Source of the DNA: a virus
Taxonomy: Duplodnaviria; Caudoviricetes
Virus record (IMG/VR): IMGVR_UViG_3300022221_000012
Location: 1 to 48,910 of that record
Length of the DNA: 48,910 nucleotides
Strand: one strand, 5' to 3'
Of the stretch, positions 4,582 through 48,103 are shown piece after piece; position 1 is the stretch's first letter; the number at the start of each line of letters is the position of its first letter. The notes under the pieces are model-generated. The model searched no databases. It saw only the letters and a list, made by a program, of their open reading frames with translations, and had not been told where the DNA came from. Both the position numbers and the translations under genes were made by a program.

Positions 4582-4920
4582 ATGATTATGATTTATATTT
4601 TAATGGCGGCAGTTATATTATTAGTAGCGTCTTGTGTGCTGCTTTATTACAGCAGTATTGGATATGGTTTAATCCCCATGATCAGTGCGATAACAGGTGT
4701 TCTTGGGCTTGGCGCGTGCGCGATAATTGCTATTCTGTTTGTGACATACGGCTTTGGCTGGCTAGCTGCCGAGCACAAAGCAAAAATCATTAACCGAGAG
4801 TACAAAGCAAACTACACGCAGGCCGAGGTGTTTTATGCCAGCGATGTAATCGACACCGTGCGCGAGCTAGACCGCAAGCGATATGAGGTCAACGGCGATT
4901 TGATGAAGCCGAAAGAATAA
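4582..4920 (+). CDS. Membrane protein with two predicted TM helices
   Basis: Two long hydrophobic stretches followed by a soluble C-terminus; AAGGA RBS. Confidence 0.75.
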   Translation: MIMIYILMAAVILLVASCVLLYYSSIGYGLIPMISAITGVLGLGACAIIAILFVTYGFGWLAAEHKAKIINREYKANYTQAEVFYASDVIDTVRELDRKRYEVNGDLMKPKE

Positions 4921-5669: not shown

Positions 5670-8600
5670 CTACTCAGCGAACCTGCCTTGCTCTCTGGCT
5701 TTTTTCTCTACGCGCTTATCTACAACGATACCTGCCGTTGCACGGTCTGAATATCTGGCTCTTTGGGCTAAAGACCGTCGCAATGTGTCGTGATCAATTC
5801 TTAGGTCGCGGTTTTTGCGGTTCCAATCATTGATTTTTTGACGCATTTCTCTTTTTAGTTCGTTATCACCATTGCGCACAGCCATAGCATATGCATCCAT
5901 GATCCGCTGTCTTTTAGTTAAAAGTGTAGATTCATAGTTTTTAATGGCTCTGTTAGCATCGTACCTATCATTTAATCTGGCTGGAGAGAAGCCTGCAGCC
6001 TGCAGTAACGACTCAGGCATTGATAAGCTTTCCATTAGCGGGTCGCCGCGCAAGGTCTTCGCGCCTTCGGTCGCATAGCGCACAGCGCGCATGCTATCTT
6101 TGATTGCTTTGGGAACCATAGCTTCAATGCCGCGCATTGTCTGGCCTTCGTGGATCAATTGCTTACCTTTTAACGCATTAGTGAATATGCCGCCGATTGG
6201 CCCCGCTACCTGTTCCATCCAATAATGAGCCAAAGCAGCGCCTTCTAATTCTCTGTCAGGCTCACGCAGCCACAGATTATCTAAGCTAGTGCGGCTAGAC
6301 ACTTCCGCGCCGGTTAAAGGCTCCACAATGCCGCTGGTAATGATTCTGGCAGCATCTTGTCCCAAGTGATCGGCTAAGAAATTACGATAGGCTGTTTCTG
6401 CATCCCACGGTTCATCATCATCACCAAATGCATCTGCCGCTGCATTAGCTACGCCGAACATAACCGACATTAAAGGCAGGCCAAGCGTTCCAGAAAATGC
6501 GGCCGTCATGCCAAGCACACCTGCAAGTTTCTTTCTTGCCAGAGATTTAACTTCCGGCGTTTCGCCTTTGAAAGACTGATAGAAATTACGCCACAGTAAC
6601 CAGCTTATGTTTAGGCTGTATTGACGGAACATTAGCAGCACTTTGGCAACGTCAGACTGCATGAACCGAGCGCGATTGGCATTCGAGTAATCAAACTGAG
6701 TTTCCCAGACAATGTTCTCAGCGTAGGCTGTCGCTTCGTTAAAACTCATGCCGTGTTTTCTGGCAAGGTTAAATGCAGCCAAGGCTGTGCTTTCTCTGTT
6801 TATCACTTCTGTTTTGTGAAATAGAAAACTAATGCCATTCATGACTCGGCGATAAGCAGGTGAATAAGCCTGTGTATCTGTTTCTGACAAGCCAGCTAGG
6901 TTATGCGCCAGTGAGCGATCAATAGCGCCGGATTCATACCAGACCTTGAATGCTGCCTGTTCTTCATCGGATAAACCGCGTGTCAAATTGCCATCGACAT
7001 TTCTAGTCGCTCTAAGTGTGCCGCTCATCAAAGCATTAAAGGCTTTTTTAACGCCGAACTTTGATGCAAGAACAGGAAATGAAACTATCGGAACTTGAGT
7101 GAAGTTCACAAAAGCCGCCGCAGGGGTAAGTCCTAGATACCAAGCAAAACCTAACGAACTAATTTTGTTAGATATGGCGCTGTCTTTAGGACTCATTACC
7201 CAGTCATGCCGCTTGCGCATTTCATTGTGCATAACCGTGGCTTTCACGGCTTCCTCTGGGTCGGTGTCATTCATATCTTTGATACTCTGGCGCATGTTGT
7301 TAAGCGCATCATCCAGCTTGTGTGAATGCCTTAACCGTGCAATTTGGAATGATCCGTGAAACATATTTCCAGCATATGCGCGGAGCGCATCAGAAGAATA
7401 ACCTGGCGTGCCTTTCCGGTGAATGTTGTGTTTTCTAATAGACAAATCAGGCAGCATTCTAAGGTAAAGCTGGTACACATCGTCCTTTACTGCTTCTCCA
7501 GCATTTGCCGTGTCTAATACTTCCATAAGGTCGGACAAGAAGCCGGTGCTAACTCCATCCGCTTGTCGTGACGAATCTAGTTTTCGTCCGGCTTTATTTA
7601 CTTTGTATCCATTTTTCTTTAGCTCAGCATTACCTTTACGCCAATCTTGGATATTCTCATACATGAAAAAGGCTTTTTCGCCATTAGTGTCAGTAGCGGA
7701 AATCCAAAACTCACCAAATCGTGCCAATGGGAAATAAGGGCCAGTCAATCGAGCCGATTCAAAATGCTGCCTGATTTTTGCCGTTTCTGCTTTAGCTACA
7801 GCACCATCTGCAATCAACGCCTCAACCTTTTCTACCAAAGCATCTTCATATGCCTTAGATTGATCTAAGTACGATTGCTTTACATCACGGTATAACTGCT
7901 TCCAGTCCTCGCTAAGCGCATTAAACTTATTTACCAGCCTAGGGTAGGCTTCACGTCTGCGCCGCTCTTGTGTGAGCAATTCTGCAAGATTATCAATGCG
8001 CGCCTGCATCTTACTCTGTGTTGCCTTGTCCTTGCCCTTCATGCCTTCGGCAATTTCGGCAATCTGTGCATTTATTTCCTTTGGTGTCACAGCCATATCT
8101 ACCCACCGGATAGATTCAGTGCCTTTGGCATTTGTTTCTAACCGCTCGCGCTTAAACGTCAATGGCCGGTATTCGCTGTCAGGATCAACACCCTCAAGTG
8201 TTGACTCGTGCATTACTTCAACGGCTTTTGCTGCGCCTTTACGGTCTTTGCGTTGCAGCTTTTCCCAATGTTCGGACTGCTTGCCTACAGCTTCTTGCAG
8301 TTTGTTTCTGTCTGTACCCATTTTCTGAACAATGGATGCATATCTTCCTACTTGAGGCAAGGTATCACCGGCCAATTCTGCTAAGTGGCGCAATGTAAGT
8401 GCGCCAAGCCATGCAGGCCTTGTGTTTTCTTTCAGATTTTTCGGGTTTATTTGATCTAAGCGCTTCCGTGCTTCTTCAACAAAGCGCGATTTTGTGGTTT
8501 TATCAATTTCGTCAAATACAGTTTCAGGCTGACTGTATAAAATACTGTCATTGTCTGCGCTATATTCACCAGCATTACCAATAGCTGATTTTATTTGCCC

Positions 8601-11600
8601 AGGATCGAAGGCTATAAAACTATTCCCGACACCTTCTTGTTTGTTTTTATACACCACTCCATCGTAGCCGCGATCTGCGAGTATGGATTTTATTTCATTG
8701 TTCGCCGTTCTTCTTTCATTAACTGTGCCTTTATCCCCAATTGAATAAAGCCTTTTTGATTTTTCCTTGTCAATAAAACCCGCTTTTAGTAATTGCGGCG
8801 CAACAGAATCAGCGTGAAACGACCCACGATCTAATAATTTTATTGGCTCATTTATCCGCAAATATACAGGGATAGTTTTCACTGGCGCAGTGGAGTCCAT
8901 GAGCGTATCTTTTTCATGAACGCCACCACGCAAATTCCTAGCCTGCTCTGCCGTACCAAAGTGGGATCCTAAGTCGCCTCTCTCAGTATTAAAAGCGTCA
9001 AAGCTTGCCGAGGTTCTATGATAAACAACCAGCGGCCTGCCTTTGCTGTCCACAACTTTAGAGTCCCCGAACCAGCGCCAGAAGTTTTTTATCCCTTCCT
9101 CGGTATTGTGAATAGGCTTGCCGTCGCTGTTTAGTGTGCTGCGCTGTACGCCATCGACTTCAATTAAGTCCTTCTCTGTCTGGCTGTAAAGAAGCTCGCC
9201 AAGGCCATCAGGCGCTAAACGCTTATTGGCCCCGCTGATCCGGCCAGCATTGCCCACCACTTCGGATTGTTCTTGGCCTTGTGTGCGTATAGCGGTAGCT
9301 GCGAGTATTGCTCGCGCAATCGTAGTGCGGCCAAAAGCTGCTTCTCTGCGCTCATTCGCGTAATTAGACCTTGGCGGTCTGCCAGCAAACGCTTTTCGAG
9401 CGCCGCTTGCAATTCTTGCCAGTTCGTCTTTGGTGATAACTTGTCCATCAGCTCCCAAAAAGCGTCCGGTCTTGAAATCGTAGGTAGCATTGCGCACCGA
9501 TGGGGCGAAGGTAAGGACGTTATTGTACGCCGATAACAGTAAAGATTCCAGATTATCGGCATGCTCTCCTTCTGCCCATGCCACAGGACTAAACCACGGC
9601 CTGTCCTTAACCGTCTGGCGCGGATGTGGCCGCATAAATGACGTGTCGCCATCGAATTTCAGTGCCGCCGCTGCCATTAGCTCAGTACGTCGTAGCAAGG
9701 CTTCATCGCTCAATCCATTGGGATCACCTACGAATACCTTGCCTGCATTGCGCGCATAGTTAAAGATAGCCATATACATAGCTGTGCCGCCGGAATGTCC
9801 AGGCGTGAGGCTTGAGGCATCCAAATACATGCGATTGCCTTTGTCCTCAATGTACAAATAAGCGTTTTCGCCATCCGCTGTTTTAATCTTGTGCTTGTGC
9901 GCCGTGCTTTCGCGCCCATCTTCGCGTACAAAACTGGTGCTTGCTGTTCCTGAATAACTAACAGTCATTGATCCGATCACGTCTTTGAAAACACCTTCTA
10001 ATGTCTCTTTGTCGCTTATCGGGTATCTGAATGCATCATCATATTTGGCAATCTCTCGGAATAATTCACTGATCGGCCTTCCTGCTTCTTCGGCAAAATC
10101 ATCGAATATAGAGTCAATAGGTACTGATCTTGCGCCCTCGGTAGCAAATGGCGCTTGGATGATCGGTGCTGCACCAATGCCAGAACCTTCTTTCACGTTT
10201 TTCATGCCACGCGATACCAAGTCGCGCATTTCTGAATCGCTCCATTTAACATCGAAGCCAAGAGCGCGTAGCCAGCGCTTAGCTGCTGATATTACACGAT
10301 CAAGTATGCTGCCTTTAACACCTCGCTCCGCCATTACAGCGATCAATTCCTTCGCATAGGTCATGGGCGTAGCTTTGGCATATCGGCGCGATGTTGATTC
10401 AACGGCAGCACGCAATGCGGCGTTTTTAATTGACGCTGTATCAGCTCTCATCTTTACGGCTGAAAGCATTATTTGATTCCACTGCTCTTTACCGACAATT
10501 GATTCAACGCCGTAATGGCCGAATACTTCATGCGCCAATACCTGCTCTGCGCGTGATGCGTTTTTAAGATTGCCTGCAATCATCCAGACCGTATTGCTGC
10601 CGTCATAATATGCTTCGGCTGTTTCCCATCCTCTACCGCTTTTGCCTCTAGCTGGCAATTCATTAGCTGTCTCAATAATACGCACAGTAGGCGCATCACC
10701 TTTCCATGTGCGCGTGATTTTGTTCAGCCTTTCAGTGACACCAAGCCAGTCACGCTCTGCTTGCTTAATTTCGCCGCGTCGCTGCGCACCGTCTAGCCAT
10801 TGCTTCCAGTTATCAGCGCTCGCCTTGGCTGGAGCGCCTTTCGCTTCTTCAAGAGATTTTAATAGCGCCGAATTAAAAGGCTTGTCTGCTGGTTCTGGCT
10901 TGCTGTAAAGAGGCTGATTTTCATTTGAGCTAGGCTCGCTTTGCTTGTCGATTACAACAAGTCTGGCGTTCACACTGGTGCTTACCGGAAGGCTTGGATC
11001 GTTGAAAGTGCCTGATTCAAGTTTTTCAGATGTCCCTCCTACCGATTCCAGCCATTCTCGAAACGCTTGCGCTTTCTTATCCTGCCCAAAGAACACGCCT
11101 TCGCCCATGATCGAAACAATGCGGCCACCATCTTTAAGCAAAGTGTATGCGTGCATGACGTGCTGCGCATCGCGTCTATCCGAAAATGGCGGGTTCATAA
11201 TAATGCGGTCGTAAATAGCCTTTTTATTTATATTTTCAATAGCAATAGTCGCAGCATTAAAAACAGGCTCAGCCCCGCGCCTAGGCTGCTTTACTTTTCC
11301 AGGCCCAGCGCCGCCTCCACCTTGGTTGCGGCCCGCCTCTTTCGCGTATTTATTTTGTATTGCTTGCAATACTTCAATATCTGCTGCACTTGCAGCATCA
11401 AGCACTTTCTGACCATCATTCTGTATGCTATTGGTAACACTCTCAATAAAAATGTCGCGGCTAACCATGTTGGTTATAAGCTGCTGCCAATCATTATTTC
11501 CTTTAAACTCAAGAAAGTCTCTGCCAACAACATTAAACCCTTTTTCTTCTAACAATTCTCTGCGGCTAGGACTATATTCAATTACGTCTGGATCAAAGCC

Positions 11601-14600
11601 TGCATCACGCAATTTTTCTGCAATATGCCCCATACCGGCACTTGGCTCTAATACTTTCATGCCTTCTGTTATTTCAGCGGCATCAATCATATCTTGCGCT
11701 GTATCTTCTGGTGTTGGGAAGAAGTCTAGCCCATCTTTGGCACGGCCAATCATAGCGCGCTCAAGCTCTTTAATTTTGCTTGGCTTTGCTGCGCCTTCTA
11801 AATGATCCACGTACTCGTACAGCGCTGATCTAAACTCGAACGGGCTTTGTATCCCCATTGCTTTTAATCTGCCAAGATTTTCATATGTGCTGCTAATTAA
11901 ATATGGAAGCTCCAGCTTTTTGTCTGCCTTTGCTTTCTCCACGATTTTTTCACCCAGTTCATAATCAAGAACTATCTTTTTATCGTGGTCGTTTTTCCAT
12001 AACCCTTCTTCTAGTGCTACCTTCGGGCTGGCAACAATGGCAAACTGACCGCGCTTTACCTGCACTACAATTGCCTTGCCTTTAAGATTCGACTTAAACA
12101 AAGACCTCTCAGCCATGGGCCTAGAGCTAAAATGAGCAGCGCCTCCGTTGGCTTTAGAAAATAGGTATAGCAGTCTTGCGTTTTCCGGTTTTTTGACGAA
12201 TGCGATGTAATCTGCTGTGACATCATCGGCTATTTTCATCAGCTTGCGGCTTAGCATTTTAGTACCTTCCAGTTCGGACAGCCTGCGCGCAAGGCTCGCT
12301 AGATCGCTTTGATATGCTTGGTAAACTGGAAATTGCGCGTACTCAACAAGGTCTTTATCTGGGCGTGCTTCCATTGCAGTATCGCGGTCTTTATAGTCCA
12401 ATTTTAATTCTTGAACCTTCGCCTGTTTAGCGCTGCTAAGCACGCTATTCAAGTAACCAAATTGCACTTTCTGCCTGAGCCTTTTAAGGTACTTTACTGA
12501 GCCGCTATCTATGCCGTCTGCAACATTTCTCATGGTCTTGGCAAGTGCTTTATCTCTGCTGGCCGAGGCTTCCGCACTGGCAGCAAAACGCGCCCTGCGT
12601 GCCGTGTTGACCTTTCTATCTGCGGTTAATACATCGTCGGCGTTGCTATCTAACCTGTCGGCCATTTCGCGCAAGCGCTCAGTAGCAGACTGTGATTTAT
12701 CGTCAGCAAACGCATCCCGCCTTGCCTTTACCTGCTCTTGCGCTGCGTCTGCTTTACCGCCGATAAATTCTAAGAATGCATTTGCCGATTCTTCATTCTT
12801 GAATTGAAAGCCTGGTACAGCGCCGCCATGACGGTATTTTGAATACCACCCGCCCATACTTTTTGCCGTTCTATTCCAAAGCGTGTAAATATCACGCTCG
12901 ACGCGCTCATCAGCCTGCACTACAAAAAGATCAATACCGGACTTAGTGTGTTTCGTCTTGATAACTTTGCCGTCAACTGTTTGGCTCGCTACATTTACCT
13001 CTCTTTGCTCGTCTTTTCGTTCGGCTCGCTCTGCCATTCGCTTATCCGCTACTAGGTTATCTAGCCTAATGCGTTGCTCAAGCGTAAGATCACGGCGCGC
13101 TTCTTTTTGTGTTTTCTTTTCTTGCTCTTTTTTATACCCAAAATAGTTTAAGTATTCTTGATATGTTTCTGGATTCTCCAGTGACTTTTCTACAAGTTCC
13201 TTGCGTTCTTTTTTAGCTTCGTTTAGCTCAGCCAGTTCCGTTTTGTATTGCTCTTGTATTTCACTGAGTTCTTTTTCTGTAGTGTTTTCAACAAGCGCAT
13301 CTAATGCCTTTTGCTTTGCTATTTTGTGGGCTTCAATTCCTTCCCTTGTACCAAGATATGAGTTAGGGCCATAGTTTCTATGCAGCGAAAAGCTTTCTAG
13401 CGTTTCTCGATAAACAGTATCAACAATATCGCTTTTCTTTTCGTTTTTGTACCTGTGTTGCATCATAGGACTGAGCATCAGCAACAGGTTTTTAATTGTT
13501 GCTTTGTTCAAACTGTCTATGAAAGCGTCTTTGCTATTCATAAACGAAGAATACATTTGCTTATAATCGCTAAGCGTTGCCACCCCACTATACAAAGACT
13601 TGAAAAACTCTTTAATGCCTGTTGCTGTCGGCTCATAGATTGTTTTTTCTGTGCCCTCTACTGGTACGTTTTCTGCATCTTCGCTTGTGCTTTCAGGTGC
13701 TTTTTCTTCTGACTGTCGCGGCAAGGATGGCTTATCTGCTAATTCATCAGGCTTGCCTTCTTCTGATTTATCGGACTTTGCATCGGTATCAGATTCTTTG
13801 ACTACATCAAGAGCTGGGAATGCTATTTCACCTTTCGCGGCTGACACTTTTTTAGCTTCTTCTATTGCGGCTTTGGCATACCGGCGCAATGAATCGCTAA
13901 CAATCTTAATTGCATCGCCTTCGCTATTAGCCAAGTAGGTGCGTGTGATAGCGCCTTCTTTTCTTTTGTGTATTCTATAGAAGCCCTTAGCAATTAGGCT
14001 ATCAATATATTCTTGGCCGTTTGTAACGGCTCCAGTATCTTCGTCTTTGACCGATACTTTACTTGCTGCGTGTTTGCTTCTTTCAAGCTCCTTAGCGACT
14101 TTAGTTTTTTCTTTAGTGGCTTTGCGTTCTGCGTCAATCTTTGCGCGCTGTTCTGGTGAAACTCCGGTGAAGGCATCTACAGCATCCATTGTGCCTTTCA
14201 CGGTGCGCGGTAGTTTTATCCCAGTAAAACGCTCAAATGTTTTGCGCCAAGCATTGTTGCTCAACGATTTTAAATGCTGGCGTATTTGATTATTGTCTTT
14301 TGACAGTAGCGCTTTGACGATAGAGCTATCATTAGCTGGCTTGTCATGATCAGGGTGAGCCTTGGCGTATTCTTCTTGAAATATGGCGTTAGCTTTAGCT
14401 GCATCATCATTTTCAGCACTCTCTACTGCGGGTGCTTTAGTGTCGCCATCTTTAAGCCATGCCTTAAACTCATCTTGGCTCATTTGTTTGACAGCACCTA
14501 GCCCAGTCCAGCCTTTTTCGTAATTAGATAAATACGCTTTGCGTGCTTGCTTCTCATCAGCAAAACCGATCATTACCTTGTGTTCATCAAATGAGCCGTC

Positions 14601-16910
14601 TTTATTATTTTGATCGACGATGAAAACAGGGTGATCTTCGTTGTGTGCATCATCAGATAGAAATACATCTACTTGATCTTTGTCTGCGCCTGTTGTGCGT
14701 TTGATATACCCGTAATGATTCTTTAAGGCAGGCCATTTTGGATCGCGCTTTGAACCGGCTGGGTTTTCAATAGACACATTAAGGCCGTTTATGTTGGTAT
14801 GGCCTTTTTTGTAATTTCCTGCCTCTTTCTGTGCCTTGGTTGGTACTGGCAAGTCGTTATTTGGGCTTGTGGCGGCCTGCTCTGCTACAGACTTAACAGG
14901 GTTAGCGGAATCATATTGCGCAATCTCAGCATCAAACGGCGCACGCTCATCTTCGGATGCAAACTCTTGGCCAGTAATTGGATTGATATTCGCGGCTAAT
15001 GCCGATCTTAATTCATTGGCTTCTGCGCTGTTTAATTCTTGCGCCGTATCATCGTGCGCTGGCGCATCTTCTATGCGCTGCCCTTGAATATCGTCTTTTG
15101 CATTAGCTGGTTTTGGCGCTTTTCGTTCCATTTGAACTTCTCTGCGAAGTTCAGAAGCACGCCTCGGCGTTAAGCCGAACGCGCTTGCTACCTTCTTATT
15201 GTCTGGCGCTATGCCACGATCTAGCATTTTGCTAATTTCTGAACGAACCAAGGCCTCTTTAGCTAATGTTTGATCCTGCGATTCTGGCTCGGCTTGTAAA
15301 GACAATGGCTTTTGTTCAATAGGCTCAGCTACATTGATCTCAGGTAATTTTTGTGTCTCGATCTTGGGCGCTTCTTGCGCATAATCAGGATTGCGCGCTG
15401 CAATTGTTTTTTGCGTGCTAGGCGTAATACCTAGCTCTTGGTTACGCTGTAATTGTGCTTGCTTGGCTTGCTGCTCTAGCTGTGCGCTTTGTAGCAATTG
15501 GCTCTGTGTGGCTGCATTGCCAGCCGTATTGACTGTAATGGTGCTTTGCGGCAGCATTCTGCCGCCTTGTTCCATGTGTTCTTGCAGTTTTGCAATAGCG
15601 TCTTGCTGTTCTTTTGGATTACGTGCATTCGCTATGTTCTGGCGCAAGATGTTTGCTTGTTCGTCAATCGCGTTTGCCGCAATGTTCAAAGCTCTTGTAA
15701 ATGTTCCTTTTGGTTCTGGTGCTTGTGCCTGTTGTTGGTCAGGATCGCTAGACAGAACTTCTTGAGGCTTTGATAATGCTACGCCGCCTGCACCCATGCC
15801 GCCACCCATTGCGCCGCCAAGCACTGCGCCGGTGGCTGCGGCCTCTGGCACGCCTTCCATTAGTCCTCTGTTTGGGTCTATGCCTTGGACACCAACATTC
15901 ACGCCGAACTGATTGCCGCCTTCTTGCACGGTTTCCTCAGCGGCTTCTGCCAAGATGCCCTGCCCTACCTTGCGCGCACCTTGCAGCGACACTAGGCCAC
16001 GAAGTCCGGCAACATTAGATAGCCCACGGGTAAACACTTCTGCCTCAAAAGGCGCTGAAATTTTACCACCGACATAGGCCAACGGCGCTGCTACCAGTGC
16101 GGCCATCATGCCTGCATCTGTAGCCATAAGGCGCTTAGCTGCGCCTGGTTCTAACCCTCTAGCTAGCAATGACTGGTAATCTTCGTTTGCCTGCCATACT
16201 TCTTCCGGCAAGGATAATGCGTCATTTATCGCGCTTTTTTGCGCGTCTGTTGTTTCAAGAACAGTGCCGGACTTTGCTGCAAAGTCTGCGCCTGCTTTTA
16301 ATGCTTCCGGCCTTGCTGCTAAAGCTGCTTTTTTGCCTATTTCTTCTGCCGCCTCTTTAGTGGCTCCTTGCGCCAATGCTTTCTGTGTGGCCTTGGCTCC
16401 GATTCTGCCAGCAACACTACCTGCTCTTACTGCCGTGCCATAGCCTAGCGTTGCTAATGTAGGTATTTGCTCTGCTGCATACCCTCCCAATAAAACAGGA
16501 TCAGAAATCAAGTGCTTGGCACTAGCGCCAAATCCTTTGACATCTCTAAATTCTTTTCTTTTTGCTTTGGTTGTGTCAGATTGTTTTTCTTCTATTGCGC
16601 CAGTCACAGCATCCGTGCCTTCTGCTAGCATGGTTGTTGGGCCTGGCCCTACTCCCAGCCTAGCCAATCCGCTTAACACTCTATTATGCGGCGACATTTG
16701 TTCATGACCACTGGCAAGACCGCCAATAAGTTGTGCAGTGCCAGACGCTATTTGCAATCCGGTGTCTTTTGCAGCCTCGCCCCATGTGCGCGTCAACTCA
16801 GACTTTTTCTTTTCAGGAAACTTAGGCAAGCCACCATCATCGGCTTCAAATGGATTTACAAATTCGTCATTTGCATTAGGCTCGTCGAATGGATTAACAA
16901 ACTTAGTCAT
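5670..16910 (-). CDS. Giant polyvalent internal virion/ejection protein (3746 aa; PPase-like, N6-adenine MTase, zincin peptidase, GNAT-like, ADP-ribosyltransferase, PLxRFG/LPD39-like)
   Basis: GNYKKGH..HYGYI..DQVDVF..DEHKV; FFPTP..LEPSAGMG..IIMNPPF; LAHEVFGHYG; NFWRWFGDSKVVD..VVYH..GYDGVVY..QIKSAIGN; YFPLARFG; last gene of the late operon. Confidence 0.9.
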   Translation of the reverse strand: MTKFVNPFDEPNANDEFVNPFEADDGGLPKFPEKKKSELTRTWGEAAKDTGLQIASGTAQLIGGLASGHEQMSPHNRVLSGLARLGVGPGPTTMLAEGTDAVTGAIEEKQSDTTKAKRKEFRDVKGFGASAKHLISDPVLLGGYAAEQIPTLATLGYGTAVRAGSVAGRIGAKATQKALAQGATKEAAEEIGKKAALAARPEALKAGADFAAKSGTVLETTDAQKSAINDALSLPEEVWQANEDYQSLLARGLEPGAAKRLMATDAGMMAALVAAPLAYVGGKISAPFEAEVFTRGLSNVAGLRGLVSLQGARKVGQGILAEAAEETVQEGGNQFGVNVGVQGIDPNRGLMEGVPEAAATGAVLGGAMGGGMGAGGVALSKPQEVLSSDPDQQQAQAPEPKGTFTRALNIAANAIDEQANILRQNIANARNPKEQQDAIAKLQEHMEQGGRMLPQSTITVNTAGNAATQSQLLQSAQLEQQAKQAQLQRNQELGITPSTQKTIAARNPDYAQEAPKIETQKLPEINVAEPIEQKPLSLQAEPESQDQTLAKEALVRSEISKMLDRGIAPDNKKVASAFGLTPRRASELRREVQMERKAPKPANAKDDIQGQRIEDAPAHDDTAQELNSAEANELRSALAANINPITGQEFASEDERAPFDAEIAQYDSANPVKSVAEQAATSPNNDLPVPTKAQKEAGNYKKGHTNINGLNVSIENPAGSKRDPKWPALKNHYGYIKRTTGADKDQVDVFLSDDAHNEDHPVFIVDQNNKDGSFDEHKVMIGFADEKQARKAYLSNYEKGWTGLGAVKQMSQDEFKAWLKDGDTKAPAVESAENDDAAKANAIFQEEYAKAHPDHDKPANDSSIVKALLSKDNNQIRQHLKSLSNNAWRKTFERFTGIKLPRTVKGTMDAVDAFTGVSPEQRAKIDAERKATKEKTKVAKELERSKHAASKVSVKDEDTGAVTNGQEYIDSLIAKGFYRIHKRKEGAITRTYLANSEGDAIKIVSDSLRRYAKAAIEEAKKVSAAKGEIAFPALDVVKESDTDAKSDKSEEGKPDELADKPSLPRQSEEKAPESTSEDAENVPVEGTEKTIYEPTATGIKEFFKSLYSGVATLSDYKQMYSSFMNSKDAFIDSLNKATIKNLLLMLSPMMQHRYKNEKKSDIVDTVYRETLESFSLHRNYGPNSYLGTREGIEAHKIAKQKALDALVENTTEKELSEIQEQYKTELAELNEAKKERKELVEKSLENPETYQEYLNYFGYKKEQEKKTQKEARRDLTLEQRIRLDNLVADKRMAERAERKDEQREVNVASQTVDGKVIKTKHTKSGIDLFVVQADERVERDIYTLWNRTAKSMGGWYSKYRHGGAVPGFQFKNEESANAFLEFIGGKADAAQEQVKARRDAFADDKSQSATERLREMADRLDSNADDVLTADRKVNTARRARFAASAEASASRDKALAKTMRNVADGIDSGSVKYLKRLRQKVQFGYLNSVLSSAKQAKVQELKLDYKDRDTAMEARPDKDLVEYAQFPVYQAYQSDLASLARRLSELEGTKMLSRKLMKIADDVTADYIAFVKKPENARLLYLFSKANGGAAHFSSRPMAERSLFKSNLKGKAIVVQVKRGQFAIVASPKVALEEGLWKNDHDKKIVLDYELGEKIVEKAKADKKLELPYLISSTYENLGRLKAMGIQSPFEFRSALYEYVDHLEGAAKPSKIKELERAMIGRAKDGLDFFPTPEDTAQDMIDAAEITEGMKVLEPSAGMGHIAEKLRDAGFDPDVIEYSPSRRELLEEKGFNVVGRDFLEFKGNNDWQQLITNMVSRDIFIESVTNSIQNDGQKVLDAASAADIEVLQAIQNKYAKEAGRNQGGGGAGPGKVKQPRRGAEPVFNAATIAIENINKKAIYDRIIMNPPFSDRRDAQHVMHAYTLLKDGGRIVSIMGEGVFFGQDKKAQAFREWLESVGGTSEKLESGTFNDPSLPVSTSVNARLVVIDKQSEPSSNENQPLYSKPEPADKPFNSALLKSLEEAKGAPAKASADNWKQWLDGAQRRGEIKQAERDWLGVTERLNKITRTWKGDAPTVRIIETANELPARGKSGRGWETAEAYYDGSNTVWMIAGNLKNASRAEQVLAHEVFGHYGVESIVGKEQWNQIMLSAVKMRADTASIKNAALRAAVESTSRRYAKATPMTYAKELIAVMAERGVKGSILDRVISAAKRWLRALGFDVKWSDSEMRDLVSRGMKNVKEGSGIGAAPIIQAPFATEGARSVPIDSIFDDFAEEAGRPISELFREIAKYDDAFRYPISDKETLEGVFKDVIGSMTVSYSGTASTSFVREDGRESTAHKHKIKTADGENAYLYIEDKGNRMYLDASSLTPGHSGGTAMYMAIFNYARNAGKVFVGDPNGLSDEALLRRTELMAAAALKFDGDTSFMRPHPRQTVKDRPWFSPVAWAEGEHADNLESLLLSAYNNVLTFAPSVRNATYDFKTGRFLGADGQVITKDELARIASGARKAFAGRPPRSNYANERREAAFGRTTIARAILAATAIRTQGQEQSEVVGNAGRISGANKRLAPDGLGELLYSQTEKDLIEVDGVQRSTLNSDGKPIHNTEEGIKNFWRWFGDSKVVDSKGRPLVVYHRTSASFDAFNTERGDLGSHFGTAEQARNLRGGVHEKDTLMDSTAPVKTIPVYLRINEPIKLLDRGSFHADSVAPQLLKAGFIDKEKSKRLYSIGDKGTVNERRTANNEIKSILADRGYDGVVYKNKQEGVGNSFIAFDPGQIKSAIGNAGEYSADNDSILYSQPETVFDEIDKTTKSRFVEEARKRLDQINPKNLKENTRPAWLGALTLRHLAELAGDTLPQVGRYASIVQKMGTDRNKLQEAVGKQSEHWEKLQRKDRKGAAKAVEVMHESTLEGVDPDSEYRPLTFKRERLETNAKGTESIRWVDMAVTPKEINAQIAEIAEGMKGKDKATQSKMQARIDNLAELLTQERRRREAYPRLVNKFNALSEDWKQLYRDVKQSYLDQSKAYEDALVEKVEALIADGAVAKAETAKIRQHFESARLTGPYFPLARFGEFWISATDTNGEKAFFMYENIQDWRKGNAELKKNGYKVNKAGRKLDSSRQADGVSTGFLSDLMEVLDTANAGEAVKDDVYQLYLRMLPDLSIRKHNIHRKGTPGYSSDALRAYAGNMFHGSFQIARLRHSHKLDDALNNMRQSIKDMNDTDPEEAVKATVMHNEMRKRHDWVMSPKDSAISNKISSLGFAWYLGLTPAAAFVNFTQVPIVSFPVLASKFGVKKAFNALMSGTLRATRNVDGNLTRGLSDEEQAAFKVWYESGAIDRSLAHNLAGLSETDTQAYSPAYRRVMNGISFLFHKTEVINRESTALAAFNLARKHGMSFNEATAYAENIVWETQFDYSNANRARFMQSDVAKVLLMFRQYSLNISWLLWRNFYQSFKGETPEVKSLARKKLAGVLGMTAAFSGTLGLPLMSVMFGVANAAADAFGDDDEPWDAETAYRNFLADHLGQDAARIITSGIVEPLTGAEVSSRTSLDNLWLREPDRELEGAALAHYWMEQVAGPIGGIFTNALKGKQLIHEGQTMRGIEAMVPKAIKDSMRAVRYATEGAKTLRGDPLMESLSMPESLLQAAGFSPARLNDRYDANRAIKNYESTLLTKRQRIMDAYAMAVRNGDNELKREMRQKINDWNRKNRDLRIDHDTLRRSLAQRARYSDRATAGIVVDKRVEKKAREQGRFAE

Positions 16911-42078: not shown

Positions 42079-42461
42079 GATCTAGTTACCTGCGGTTGAA
42101 TCTTTACCCTGCCGCCTATAATTGGCTCTCTGACCTCGGGCGATCCTGCGCGTATGAGCGTAGCATCATAGACATACTTTGTAATCTCGTGATTGTTTTC
42201 TGGAAATGCCAGCATGTCGTCTGCGCTAATGCTTAACTTTATCCATCCGCTCGTCTCTGGCGTATCTGCAATAAGCCTACCGTTTGATGTTGATAGCTCC
42301 ATCACATAAGCATCATCGCCAATAGCAGCACGCAAGCGCATCATCAGCGTTGATCCAGTAAGATCTACTGGCGCTCCTGTTTCATCGAGTAGCTGTATGC
42401 TTTCATTCCACGTCATCCCGCGAATAGCTTTGTACGACACCTTAGCAAAACTTAATGACAT
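42066..42461 (-). CDS. Putative fibre adaptor (BppU-N-like beta-sandwich)
   Basis: RGMTW..PVDLTG..MRLR..LST..YVYD..GRVKIQPQVTR pattern. Confidence 0.65.
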   Translation of the reverse strand: MSLSFAKVSYKAIRGMTWNESIQLLDETGAPVDLTGSTLMMRLRAAIGDDAYVMELSTSNGRLIADTPETSGWIKLSISADDMLAFPENNHEITKYVYDATLIRAGSPEVREPIIGGRVKIQPQVTRSWEA

Positions 42462-42724
42462 TACGGCTCATCCTCAATTTTTTGTGTGCCTGAAATATTT
42501 TTAATGCCTGCCTTGTCTAAATTACATTGGATTAGCTCTTTTTTACGCTCTGCTGCTACCTCTGGGCATTCGGCTAAGCTTCCGTTTGCTATCGGGTGTG
42601 GCACTATTAGCTGATCATCAATAGGCACATAGACTGTCTTGGTCACATAAACGATTTGTGGATCATGAATGCGCGTTGCGCACGCAGATAGAAGCAATGC
42701 TGCAATAAGAATAATTGATCGCAT
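42461..42724 (-). CDS. o-spanin (Rz1-like outer-membrane lipoprotein)
   Basis: MRSIILIAALLLSA-C lipobox; late CN motif; TAATG coupling to the i-spanin gene. Confidence 0.85.
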   Translation of the reverse strand: MRSIILIAALLLSACATRIHDPQIVYVTKTVYVPIDDQLIVPHPIANGSLAECPEVAAERKKELIQCNLDKAGIKNISGTQKIEDEP

Positions 42725-43139: not shown

Positions 43140-43853
43140 TTAAGCCTCTTGTGTGGTTTCTGTATAAAAGTCGCCTACCAGCTCCATTTCACCTATAAAG
43201 CCGACCAGCCTTCCTGAGTTATCTTTGATGGCTTTGGCGCTAGACATAACACCAAAGCGCTTTGTTCTCTGGCTGTTTCGCATAATAAATTCTGATTGAA
43301 TGCTCATTTTTTTAATTACTGCGTAGGCCCATTCTTCGCGCACATCGTCGCGCTTTTCTTGATCAATAAATCCAATCCAGCCGTTTTCTTTGACTTCATC
43401 CATAGTAGCGCCAAGCCAGCGAAGGTATGTTGAGCTAACCCATGTGCATTCGCCTTTTGCATTGGCTTCAAAATACGCTTTCGTAGTATCCAAGTCCATG
43501 CTTCTATGTAGCTGGCCTCGCAGCATAATTGAATCAATTGCTGCGCTTTTGCTTAAATCTTTTAGCCTTTCCCCGCCGTTCAACTCTGTCTCTTTCCGAA
43601 CCTCTGTTATGTCTGCCTTTATTTCCGTTATATCCGTTTGCATTTCCTTGAATATCTGCATAAGGCCTGCTGTTTTATGGTCGCCATGGAGGGTTTTGTT
43701 TATGCCTTCCACTGAACAGGCCATTGCCACCCATGATTTCTTAACGAAGAACCCTAGCCAGCCAGCTATTAGCACAATCAATGAACCCAGTATGCCTATT
43801 ACCCATATGGATACGCTCATAAGCTCTTGTGATGTAACAACAATGTTTTCCAT
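43140..43853 (-). CDS. Membrane-anchored PAS-domain protein within the lysis cassette
   Basis: TM WVIGILGSLIVLIAGWLGFFV-KK, coiled coil, then YFEANAKGECTWVS..WLG..GWIGFID..VREEW..EFIMR..IKDNSGRLVGFIG (PAS plus PAC). Confidence 0.85.
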   Translation of the reverse strand: MENIVVTSQELMSVSIWVIGILGSLIVLIAGWLGFFVKKSWVAMACSVEGINKTLHGDHKTAGLMQIFKEMQTDITEIKADITEVRKETELNGGERLKDLSKSAAIDSIMLRGQLHRSMDLDTTKAYFEANAKGECTWVSSTYLRWLGATMDEVKENGWIGFIDQEKRDDVREEWAYAVIKKMSIQSEFIMRNSQRTKRFGVMSSAKAIKDNSGRLVGFIGEMELVGDFYTETTQEA

Positions 43854-45010: not shown

Positions 45011-45036
45011 AAAAAAGCCTAGGTTTCCCTAGGCTT
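45011..45036 (-). terminator. Intrinsic terminator directly upstream of the lysis cassette
   Basis: AAGCCTAGG-GAAA-CCTAGGCTT running into a 6-nt U tract on the - strand. Confidence 0.85.
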
Positions 45037-45063: not shown

Positions 45064-45216
45064 CTATTCGATTTTTGAATCTCTAAGCTTAGCTAGTAGC
45101 CAAGGGCTTAACTTCATGCCTTTGGTTTTCGCTTGCTTTTCCCAGCTTTTCTTTAAACTGGCTGGTACTCGAAAGCATATAGTAGCATCATTAGCTGTTT
45201 TTTTTTGCTTTTTCAT
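45064..45216 (-). CDS. Ribbon-helix-helix (CopG/Arc-like) DNA-binding protein, 50 aa
   Basis: Manual translation MKKQKKTANDATICFRVPASLKKSWEKQAKTKGMKLSPWLLAKLRDSKIE*; ATGA overlap with the upstream stop; absent from the ORF track. Confidence 0.75.
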   Translation of the reverse strand: MKKQKKTANDATICFRVPASLKKSWEKQAKTKGMKLSPWLLAKLRDSKIE

Positions 45217-46049: not shown

Positions 46050-46077
46050 AAAAAAAATCCCTGCTTTTGGCAGGGAT
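46050..46077 (-). terminator. Intrinsic terminator at the end of the nin-like operon
   Basis: ATCCCTGC-CAAAA-GCAGGGAT followed by a T run on the - strand. Confidence 0.8.
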
Positions 46078-47244: not shown

Positions 47245-47469
47245 TTATTGTGGGTTTTCTTTCTCGAACATCAATGGCTCAATTGTGGTGGTGCTTGTCC
47301 TGCTGCTCAACACTTCATTGCATATGCTATTAAGTGCTTTATAGAACTTGGCCTTACTTCGCTGTCTGTTTATGTAGTCGGTTATGCTTTTAGGTGTTTT
47401 TTCTTTCGATCCGTCACCGAAAGATACCCACTCCCATGGCTTGTTTGGTTGATTCGGGTCATTATTCAT
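47245..47469 (-). CDS. Hypothetical protein
   Basis: Start at MNNDPN overlapping the end of the Q-like gene. Confidence 0.5.
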   Translation of the reverse strand: MNNDPNQPNKPWEWVSFGDGSKEKTPKSITDYINRQRSKAKFYKALNSICNEVLSSRTSTTTIEPLMFEKENPQ

Positions 47470-48103
47470 TACTGAGCGCCTTTGAGTGCTGCCGCACCGC
47501 CTCGGCTTCAAGGTCTTTAATTTCATTCAGAAACCAATCGTAGTACGGCTGAATGTTGTTAATGTAAGTTGAATACCTAATACCGATTAGCTTTGCTCTT
47601 TTGGACTTGCTGATAGGTATCACTCCATTGCCTGCGCACTTTGGGCAATTACCGATAGCTATGCCTATTTTCTTTTCGTTTGTTATAGGGGCCAGTCCGT
47701 AGCCGTGGCAGTGTTTGCAGTCGTTTCGGTGTGCTAGCTCTACTAGCGCGCTGTGCGCTATTCTTTTAACCGCTACTATTGCGCCCTTCTTTGTTATTGC
47801 CTTGTTTAGTTGTGGAAACCCGCTAGGTTTCTTCTGGGCTTTCTTTAGGTTTATGTGTCTGGCGAACCGATTGACAAGCTCTTTTGTTATTTCGTCGCTA
47901 TTAGATGCCGTCGAATAAGCAGGCCACCAAAACCATTCGTATATCCTTCGTGCCAGCTTGTTTTCAATCTGTGTTAGCGCTGCTGCTATGTCCTGTGCCG
48001 AAAAATCTGGCATGGACACTACATGCGTTCCTAGCTGCATTTGACGTACTAGCGCTGGGCTTGCTGCGCCTAGTCTTGCCATTAGCTTGCGCGGGTCTGT
48101 CAT
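47462..48103 (-). CDS. Late-gene antitermination protein Q-like
   Basis: SAQDIAAAL, zinc finger CKHCHGYG..CPKCAGNG, C-terminal helix; upstream of the lysis/late genes. Confidence 0.75.
   Translation of the reverse strand: MTDPRKLMARLGAASPALVRQMQLGTHVVSMPDFSAQDIAAALTQIENKLARRIYEWFWWPAYSTASNSDEITKELVNRFARHINLKKAQKKPSGFPQLNKAITKKGAIVAVKRIAHSALVELAHRNDCKHCHGYGLAPITNEKKIGIAIGNCPKCAGNGVIPISKSKRAKLIGIRYSTYINNIQPYYDWFLNEIKDLEAEAVRQHSKALSNE

Follow-up and report, generated by a model that had tools for sequence, protein, structure and literature searches.

Lysis time sets the burst size of a phage and is usually treated as fixed by the accumulation of its holin; to our knowledge, superinfection-triggered inhibition is the main known exception. 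A viral record of 48,910 bases, linear and estimated to be 67% complete, raises the question of what a PAS domain does in a lysis cassette, where it forms the end of a single-pass membrane protein. An initial annotation had proposed that this protein could be a holin or antiholin which links lysis timing to a metabolite, redox state or superinfection signal, with holin T of phage T4 as its model. Here, we analyze the gene in the context of the whole 48,910-nt stretch (hereafter the window), of its relatives in viral sequences, and of related lysis cassettes.

A five-gene lysis cassette with a PAS gene

The window also carries terminases, a P22-like portal and a capsid gene, and its layout is that of a lambdoid late operon, with the lysis genes first and the tail and head genes after them. 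Within the cassette, the order 3-TM gene, endolysin, PAS gene, i-spanin and o-spanin and their tight coupling, as described in the initial annotation, are borne out by the minus-strand coordinates (Table 1) and by the junctions, which are in this order a 4-nt overlap, a 1-nt overlap, a 2-nt gap and another 1-nt overlap. One contig of the probable source run covers the cassette with zero mismatches or gaps; this is not independent support. The name holin, which had been given to the 121-aa gene, is backed by its position and a GenBank label and by nothing beyond those two, and its family has no Pfam or PHROG name; we refer to it here as the 3-TM gene. Since the contig is linear and incomplete, another holin could lie outside the window.

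Several further features were noted. A small Arc-like repressor gene with a weak PHROG match (45064-45216, minus strand) directly precedes the cassette terminator, and a second terminator-like hairpin lies farther upstream (46057-46077, minus strand). The plus-strand gene block ends with a gene for a 112-aa protein with two strongly hydrophobic segments (4582-4920), possibly a superinfection-exclusion or other membrane gene, and the late operon is closed by an ORF of 3,746 aa (5670-16910, minus strand).

Table 1. Window coordinates of the cassette, its upstream elements and the parts of the PAS-gene protein.
Feature	Position	Strand	Evidence or remark
Q-like antiterminator upstream of cassette	47462..48103	-	PHROG 127, E 6e-11
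Terminator-like hairpin directly ahead of cassette	45015..45036	-	slot ahead of the 3-TM gene left without a gene
3-TM membrane gene, 121 aa	44620..44985	-	RBS precedes second Met
Pesticin/T4-lysozyme-like endolysin, 256 aa	43853..44623	-	signal-peptide-like N-terminus, residues ~1-19; E66/T90/D96
TM-coil-NGG hinge-coil-PAS protein, 237 aa	43140..43853	-	Pfam, AF2, Foldseek, VIA
Single transmembrane segment, residues ~11-36, then KK	43746..43823	-	hydropathy; predicted N-out/C-in
NGG-x4-D hinge, residues 92-99	43557..43580	-	inter-helix loop in model
Linker helix 95-120 into PAS domain	43494..43571	-	length keeps heptad phase across family
Terminal PAS domain, residues ~121-226	43176..43493	-	Pfam PAS_3, Foldseek, VIA
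Predicted i-spanin, 137 aa	42724..43137	-	N-terminal TM and coil; PHROG spanin, E 0.001
o-spanin lipoprotein	42461..42724	-	Pfam LysC, E 1e-6; PHROG Rz-like spanin, E 9e-8; start is second Met, with RBS

A membrane-anchored PAS domain behind a conserved hinge

The description of the protein as one TM helix followed by KK, a coiled coil and a complete PAS fold is confirmed by hydropathy, AF2, Foldseek and VIA. The single hydrophobic segment has a 19-residue mean of 2.53 from residue 11 and is followed by K38 and K39. In the AF2 model built with 109 relatives (mean pLDDT 86.6; 93-98 over residues 101-220), helices spanning residues 8-55, 62-90 and 95-120 lead into a five-strand PAS fold (125-225), with the five-stranded antiparallel sheet and flanking helices that define the PAS superfamily. 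Foldseek returned PAS/LOV domains as matches to this model (E 3e-7), and VIA aligned it with solved PAS/LOV domains at Z 14.8 and an rmsd of 2.2-2.5 A over 107-117 residues. At the sequence level, the query matches Pfam PAS_3 with E 8e-5, its 23.3 bits being below the curated gathering cutoff of 25.6; all 109 aligned relatives match PAS_3 at E<=0.05, the best of them reaching E 9e-18. G134 is invariant, and W159 and W175 are found in 107 and 108 of the 109 relatives, respectively. A homodimer fold of the protein, scored at 0.03, speaks neither for nor against a dimer.

Between the coil and the linker helix lies a conserved NGG-x4-D hinge that was absent from the earlier description. Its residues N92, G94 and D99 are retained in 105/108, 104/108 and 106/108 of the alignment rows with a residue at that position. 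The chain stops 11 residues past the last PAS strand and thus has no output domain, in agreement with the reported lack of a kinase, GGDEF or HTH domain.

Relatives of the protein in viral sequences

Among 1.84 billion cluster representatives, 1,561 matched the query; the best 150 include 114 proteins of 178-246 aa, and 109 of these length-matched relatives were aligned. Their common architecture is a short N-terminus, a single TM, a coil, the NGG-x4-D hinge, a linker helix and a terminal PAS_3 domain. The ESM Atlas contains several nearly all-viral clusters of similar proteins. Judged by their sequences, the TM-NGG-PAS proteins form a large undescribed phage family (65 clusters fetched), sampled here by alignment-seeded scans and therefore possibly with bias. 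A quick tree was built from 93 PAS domains, and one of its branches (SH-aLRT 100) separates the 27 cellular domains sampled from the 66 phage domains; the tree rests on 112 columns and resolves little else.

In a word-index protein search, the query alone was matched when used by itself and five proteins were matched with the alignment, and locus scans with a single protein, either the query or the endolysin, gave no match. Tblastn against cultured phages yielded no match for the query, for P0014 or for one 3-TM relative, and with P0108 the match was confined to the NGG stretch of Thermobifida phage P1312; thus, the PAS form was not encountered in any cultured phage. The 60 loci from a scan of the genome collection comprised 53 long PAS proteins and seven others, none of them TM-NGG-PAS. 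Apart from this family, the viral fold search showed resemblance to the model in further phage proteins, which are 165-260 aa long and have a PAS or GAF fold, among them proteins of Cellulophaga phages phi19:1 and phi18:3.

Predicted topology and comparison with T4 holin T

The topology suggested in the initial annotation, N-out/C-in with a cytoplasmic PAS domain, is supported as a prediction from the charge distribution: K and R residues are more numerous after than before the hydrophobic segment in 109/109 relatives, a count that is favored by the short N-termini. In 82/109 relatives, the hydropathy of this segment comes to at least 1.5.

The T4 model fares less well. Like the PAS gene, the pair of T4 holin T and antiholin RI offers one TM and a globular domain able to regulate lysis timing, and a T-like holin, in which a periplasmic domain binds the antiholin for lysis inhibition, would likewise have one TM and a single globular alpha/beta domain. 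A T-like holin is also found low among the matches of the viral fold search, where the match is weak (E 0.05, TM 0.26). According to the available text of the source, however, T4 T carries its globular domain on the extracellular side, in an N-in/C-out arrangement (PMC13056207), the reverse of what is predicted for the PAS-gene protein, and it is a poor model because its topology is opposite. The short N-termini of the relatives are acidic or neutral and the basic residues follow the TM in every one of them, so that by this predicted charge pattern the N-in/C-out arrangement with a periplasmic domain that marks T4 T as a class III holin is not seen in the family. In its sequence, the domain itself falls with the cytoplasmic PAS_3 domains found in signalling proteins. 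We consider a T-like holin very improbable.

The N-terminal module also exists without a PAS domain

A motif scan of viral contigs for NGG, with ~3,300 stored stretches estimated, returned 121 loci. A readable ORF was present in 119 of them, all of 41-117 aa and none with a PAS domain. The PAS-less NGG protein is thus an abundant single-pass protein of ~65 aa (phrog_9869). It is related to the N-terminal part of the PAS-gene protein, as a module profile built without the query finds the query at E 5e-9; the same profile finds a gene of Thermobifida phage P1312 that overlaps its amidase (E 3e-18).

The PAS-less proteins fall into 73 clusters, and the neighborhoods of the 49 short ones with long flanks were analyzed. 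An identified peptidoglycan hydrolase is nearby in 13/49 (12 by Pfam within three genes, one by similarity), and 11 further clusters carry an unnamed family with invariant His and Asp, which would give 24/49 if that family is a lysin. A small neighbor with two hydrophobic segments is found in 19/49; of those tested against PHROG, 2/15 matched a holin. Across the scanned loci (L001-L121), the ~65-aa NGG protein often has as neighbors a two-TM gene of ~60 aa and a gene for a lysin or a lysin-like protein. The unnamed family, phrog_32486 (L055:4096-4548 and 11 relatives), shows an invariant His, Asp-His and His-x-His and occupies the endolysin position. It has no Pfam and no PDB match; its His/Asp pattern resembles that of zinc peptidases, and it is probably an unnamed endolysin family.

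Most related cassettes hold a single-pass protein before the 3-TM gene

The endolysin of the window has a TM score of 0.74 to a Pesticin cluster of the Atlas and 40% identity to the endolysin of Salvo. Its E66, T90 and D96 are invariant in three relatives and are spaced like E178, T201 and D207 of pesticin; a single-sequence AF2 model reached a pLDDT of 35.5. The N-terminus resembles a signal peptide, being strongly hydrophobic with an AAA-Q site, unlike the weakly hydrophobic SAR type, and on these sequence features the endolysin is probably exported by Sec. The endolysins of the window, L256 and L478 start with a cleavable-looking signal. Several relatives have a lipoprotein-type signal, with a lipobox-like start in L448:2815-3612, L419 and L498 (Salvo gp36); lipoprotein endolysins are unusual.

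Among the best 80 of 274 loci with an endolysin relative, 42 (20 clusters) contain a homolog of the 3-TM gene. The gene before the 3-TM gene encodes a PAS-less single-pass coiled-coil protein in 16/20 clusters and a TM-coil-PAS protein in 2/20 (L478, and L448 without a clear NGG), and is absent in 2/20. The PAS-less slot proteins comprise ten TM-first proteins, one of them weakly hydrophobic, and six coil-first proteins including Salvo gp38. In L256, which came from the PAS search, the order is PAS, 3-TM, endolysin and spanins, and the slot gene is TM-NGG-PAS. The PAS-less slot proteins have no detectable homology to the NGG module (best E 0.044 of 11 tested), and the replacement is therefore one by an analog, recognized from architecture and position.

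In the window, the slot before the 3-TM gene is empty, and in a hydropathy scan of the late operon no gene but the PAS gene was left as a single-pass candidate once the spanins and the endolysin signal were set aside. Homologs of the i-spanin directly follow the endolysin in PAS-less cassettes, so that the place of the PAS gene in the window is a secondary insertion.

A 3-TM profile without the row of the window matches the 121-aa protein of the window at E 3e-18, the members having been seeded with it. Pairwise BLAST of this protein against those of L256 and L369 was not significant; the window and L256 proteins are linked by profile only, and the N-terminal segment of L369 is unlinked. The 3-TM family (window; L418-L456, L472, L478 and L492) directly precedes an exported pesticin-like endolysin in the 42 loci. 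In L449, the 3-TM protein is fused to the endolysin in one ORF, and in L369 and L482 a similar-looking multi-TM N-terminus is found on the lysin. The 3-TM protein may tether or restrain the endolysin rather than form a pore.

Salvo (Xylella phage, KF626668) provides a counterpart: its genes gp38-gp37-gp36-gp35-gp34 share with the window a homologous endolysin, a 3-TM protein (gp37, a member of the 3-TM family) and a single-pass coiled-coil gene. Both gp38 and gp37 are labelled holin-antiholin in GenBank, labels that are annotation. In contrast to the PAS-gene protein, gp38 is coil-TM-coil, PAS-less and not homologous, and it precedes the 3-TM gene. In the accessible portions of PMC13068980 and PMC6139136, we found nothing on the membrane pair.

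Genomic neighborhoods of the PAS-bearing members

The 115 loci with PAS-bearing members form 65 clusters at 60% identity. The expected linkage of homologs to lysis genes holds for part of them: a lysin, holin or spanin lies within 2 kb on the same strand in 16/65 clusters (10/38 with full flanks), and no recognizable lysis gene lies within 2 kb in 49/65 (28/38 with full flanks). ORFs of 120-420 aa with Pfam hydrolase or peptidoglycan-binding domains, in a scan that took in overlapped ORFs, number 11 in 211 kb within 2 kb of the PAS genes vs two in 236 kb at 2-5 kb. This is a ~6-fold enrichment over distal DNA (binomial p=0.007), with the near zone scanned slightly more fully. The lysis-linked members are scattered over the tree (14 changes vs a shuffled mean of 15.9).

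In L244, the PAS gene alone fills the gap between the tail fibre and a T7-type small terminase, which we take to be the T7 holin slot. Several unlinked members are flanked by terminase and portal, and others have ribonucleotide reductase, PhoH or recombination genes next to them. The TM-NGG-PAS gene adjoins terminase or portal genes in L122, L124, L125, L127, L351 and L369, most of which have no adjacent lysis gene, and in two related loci a TIR_2-domain gene is located just upstream of it (L275:3643-4005 and L279:436-810).

Linker phase, selection and cofactor motifs of the PAS domain

The distance from the hinge Asn to the invariant PAS Gly equals 7n or 7n-1 in 145/159 sequences, with 42 in the query; 15/174 sequences were unmeasurable, and the relatives are not independent. 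The heptad phase is kept in 39/53 sequences outside the main peak at 41/42. Linkers that depend on heptads transmit signals in PAS/LOV receptors, as described in the available text of PMC6798134. Such a heptad spacing is a mark of coiled-coil linkers that signal, but is shared by every structural coiled coil, and both the phase and the purifying selection on the PAS domain (dN/dS 0-0.30; 29 pairs, 10 clusters) also fit a purely structural dimer. A DIT-like motif occurs near the end in only 2/109 members, which fits the lack of a downstream output; any signal would therefore run back towards the membrane.

The proposed sensing of a ligand or redox state finds no counterpart in a recognizable cofactor site, since the heme, LOV and FAD motifs are missing or incomplete and neither a ligand nor a redox cofactor can be assigned. 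In the accessible part of PMC10468136, PAS cofactors are recognized by the flavin-binding Cys motif of LOV domains, an invariant heme-ligating His, or for FAD an F-alpha Trp plus His and/or Asn. The LOV (FMN) motif is lacking in the query, whose only Cys in the domain, C136, is on a strand, and the His of heme PAS domains (FixL, Aer2) is lacking as well, with no His after residue 116. For FAD PAS domains (NifL, MmoS, Aer), at least two of Trp, His and Asn were required: W175 aligns with the MmoS Trp, but the query has no partner His, with D164 in the domain, and the Asn is absent in 109/109. Trp plus His of the FAD type are found in 37/109 relatives, where we presume that the His position mapped from the Aer motif is the right one.

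Discussion

A role of the PAS gene in lysis is probable. Of the earlier proposal of a holin or antiholin, this much stands, on the strength of the slot replacement and the hydrolase enrichment; the two alternatives are indistinguishable here. As the family replaces a plain single-pass membrane protein in related cassettes, it is likely a lysis-timing regulator. The 3-TM protein is its likely partner, as we infer, and the PAS-gene protein is better understood as helping to time the 3-TM protein than as forming pores by itself. Given the probable Sec export of the endolysin, the two membrane proteins are more likely to set the time at which this enzyme is activated or released than to open a large hole.

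Our best explanation, to which we give slightly under an even chance, is that the PAS gene encodes the lysis-timing regulator of the cassette, with the PAS domain shifting lysis through the coiled coil on an intracellular cue. Oriented N-out/C-in, the single-pass protein would build up late into an oligomer that switches on or holds back the 3-TM protein and the exported endolysin, setting when each acts; the PAS domain would bias this step through linker and hinge in response to the cue. For the signal-dependent part of this explanation, the balance tilts a little further towards doubt.

What the PAS domain contributes is the point at which a single-pass regulator of the LysF1b or releasin kind with a fixed clock has to be weighed, in which the domain would serve only for dimerization or protein docking and sense nothing. 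The incomplete cofactor motifs agree with this, as do the heptad phase and the low dN/dS, which are expected of any coiled-coil dimer, and the PAS-less module is far commoner in viral contigs and fills lysis cassettes alone. However, PAS-less proteins of ~65-100 aa already give a constant clock, and the full PAS fold is retained at ~25-35% identity with W159 and W175 near-invariant. We regard a domain without sensing as rather unlikely, if the more serious of the two remaining alternatives. The other is a mobile late membrane gene with a function outside lysis, for instance towards host PAS kinases or superinfection, or in assembling virions; such a gene would often settle at module borders and would here have entered the cassette between the endolysin and the spanin. 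The three quarters of clusters that lack a nearby lysis gene speak for it, together with the secondary insertion to which the PAS-less relatives point and with matches of 8/109 members to phrog_1009 and of 4/109 to a 'minor tail protein' PHROG. Against this stand the hydrolase enrichment and the three other cassettes of the same endolysin family that hold a PAS gene exactly in the single-pass slot; moreover, single-pass regulators can sit far from lysins, as D29 lysA2b does in the available text of its source (bioRxiv 10.64898/2026.08.27.747656). A non-lysis gene is thus an unlikely reading, and we return to the lysis-timing regulator.

Known single-pass regulators offer working analogs for such a role that are closer than T4 T. 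N-out/C-in lysis regulators that have been tested, as far as the accessible parts of the sources go, are LysF1b and D29 LysA2b (PMC13056207, bioRxiv 10.64898/2026.08.27.747656) and Mu gp25 (PMC9239132); LysF1b activates LysF1a (PMC13056207), and Mu gp25 releases its endolysin (PMC9239132). According to these texts, the mycobacteriophage proteins LysF1b and LysA2b (DUF2746, PF10874) share with the PAS-gene protein an N-terminal TM, a predicted N-out/C-in topology, basic residues after the TM and a helical cytoplasmic tail; by prediction, the single N-terminal TM, its orientation and the basic residues are those of a LysF1b-type protein. LysF1b or LysA2b works with a separate multi-TM protein, sets lysis timing and may sit away from lysins. 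A LysF1b-type holin is further characterized by impaired lysis after its deletion and by early lysis on treatment with energy poisons. In contrast to the PAS gene, LysF1b is 124 aa long, has no globular domain and comes from a Gram-positive-type host without spanins. The releasin Mu gp25 (DUF2730, PF10805) is likewise, in the text available, an N-out/C-in tethered cytoplasmic protein, and its Gram-negative cassette also has two spanins together with an endolysin that is exported, as that of the window probably is; but Mu has no holin and a SAR endolysin, whereas the window has a 3-TM partner, a cleavable-looking endolysin signal and a PAS domain. Neither PF10874 nor PF10805 was matched by the query, by the 109 members (among the 25 of 38 families listed) or by six PAS-less NGG proteins.

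In the literature outside subscription journals and supplements, we found no description of PAS with a phage holin, with endolysin or lysis timing, or in phage genomes of this kind. A phage PAS-family receptor that reads a host cue is reportedly VqmA of vibriophage VP882, a PAS-HTH protein with a role in lysis-lysogeny. It differs in being a soluble transcription factor acting on that decision, not a membrane protein of a lysis cassette. The PAS gene is likely a real, undescribed variant of the single-pass lysis regulators that works like LysF1b or the releasin, with sensing as the inferred addition.

Two families that had no name are delimited by this analysis: one is the TM-NGG module, the other the 3-TM protein that partners exported pesticin-like endolysins. 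The five-gene Gram-negative cassette is compact and clonable whole, with natural PAS-less counterparts as controls, and the idea is thus directly testable. Phages may, on a tentative view, have fused a cytoplasmic PAS domain to a single-pass regulator, so that a metabolite or the energy state of the host, read in the cytoplasm and relayed back to the membrane along the coiled coil, advances or delays lysis through a one-protein clock; such a cytoplasm-gated clock could possibly be the inside-out counterpart of T4 lysis inhibition. If true, coupling a sensor to a lysis regulator would allow lytic phages to adjust bursting to the physiology of the host.
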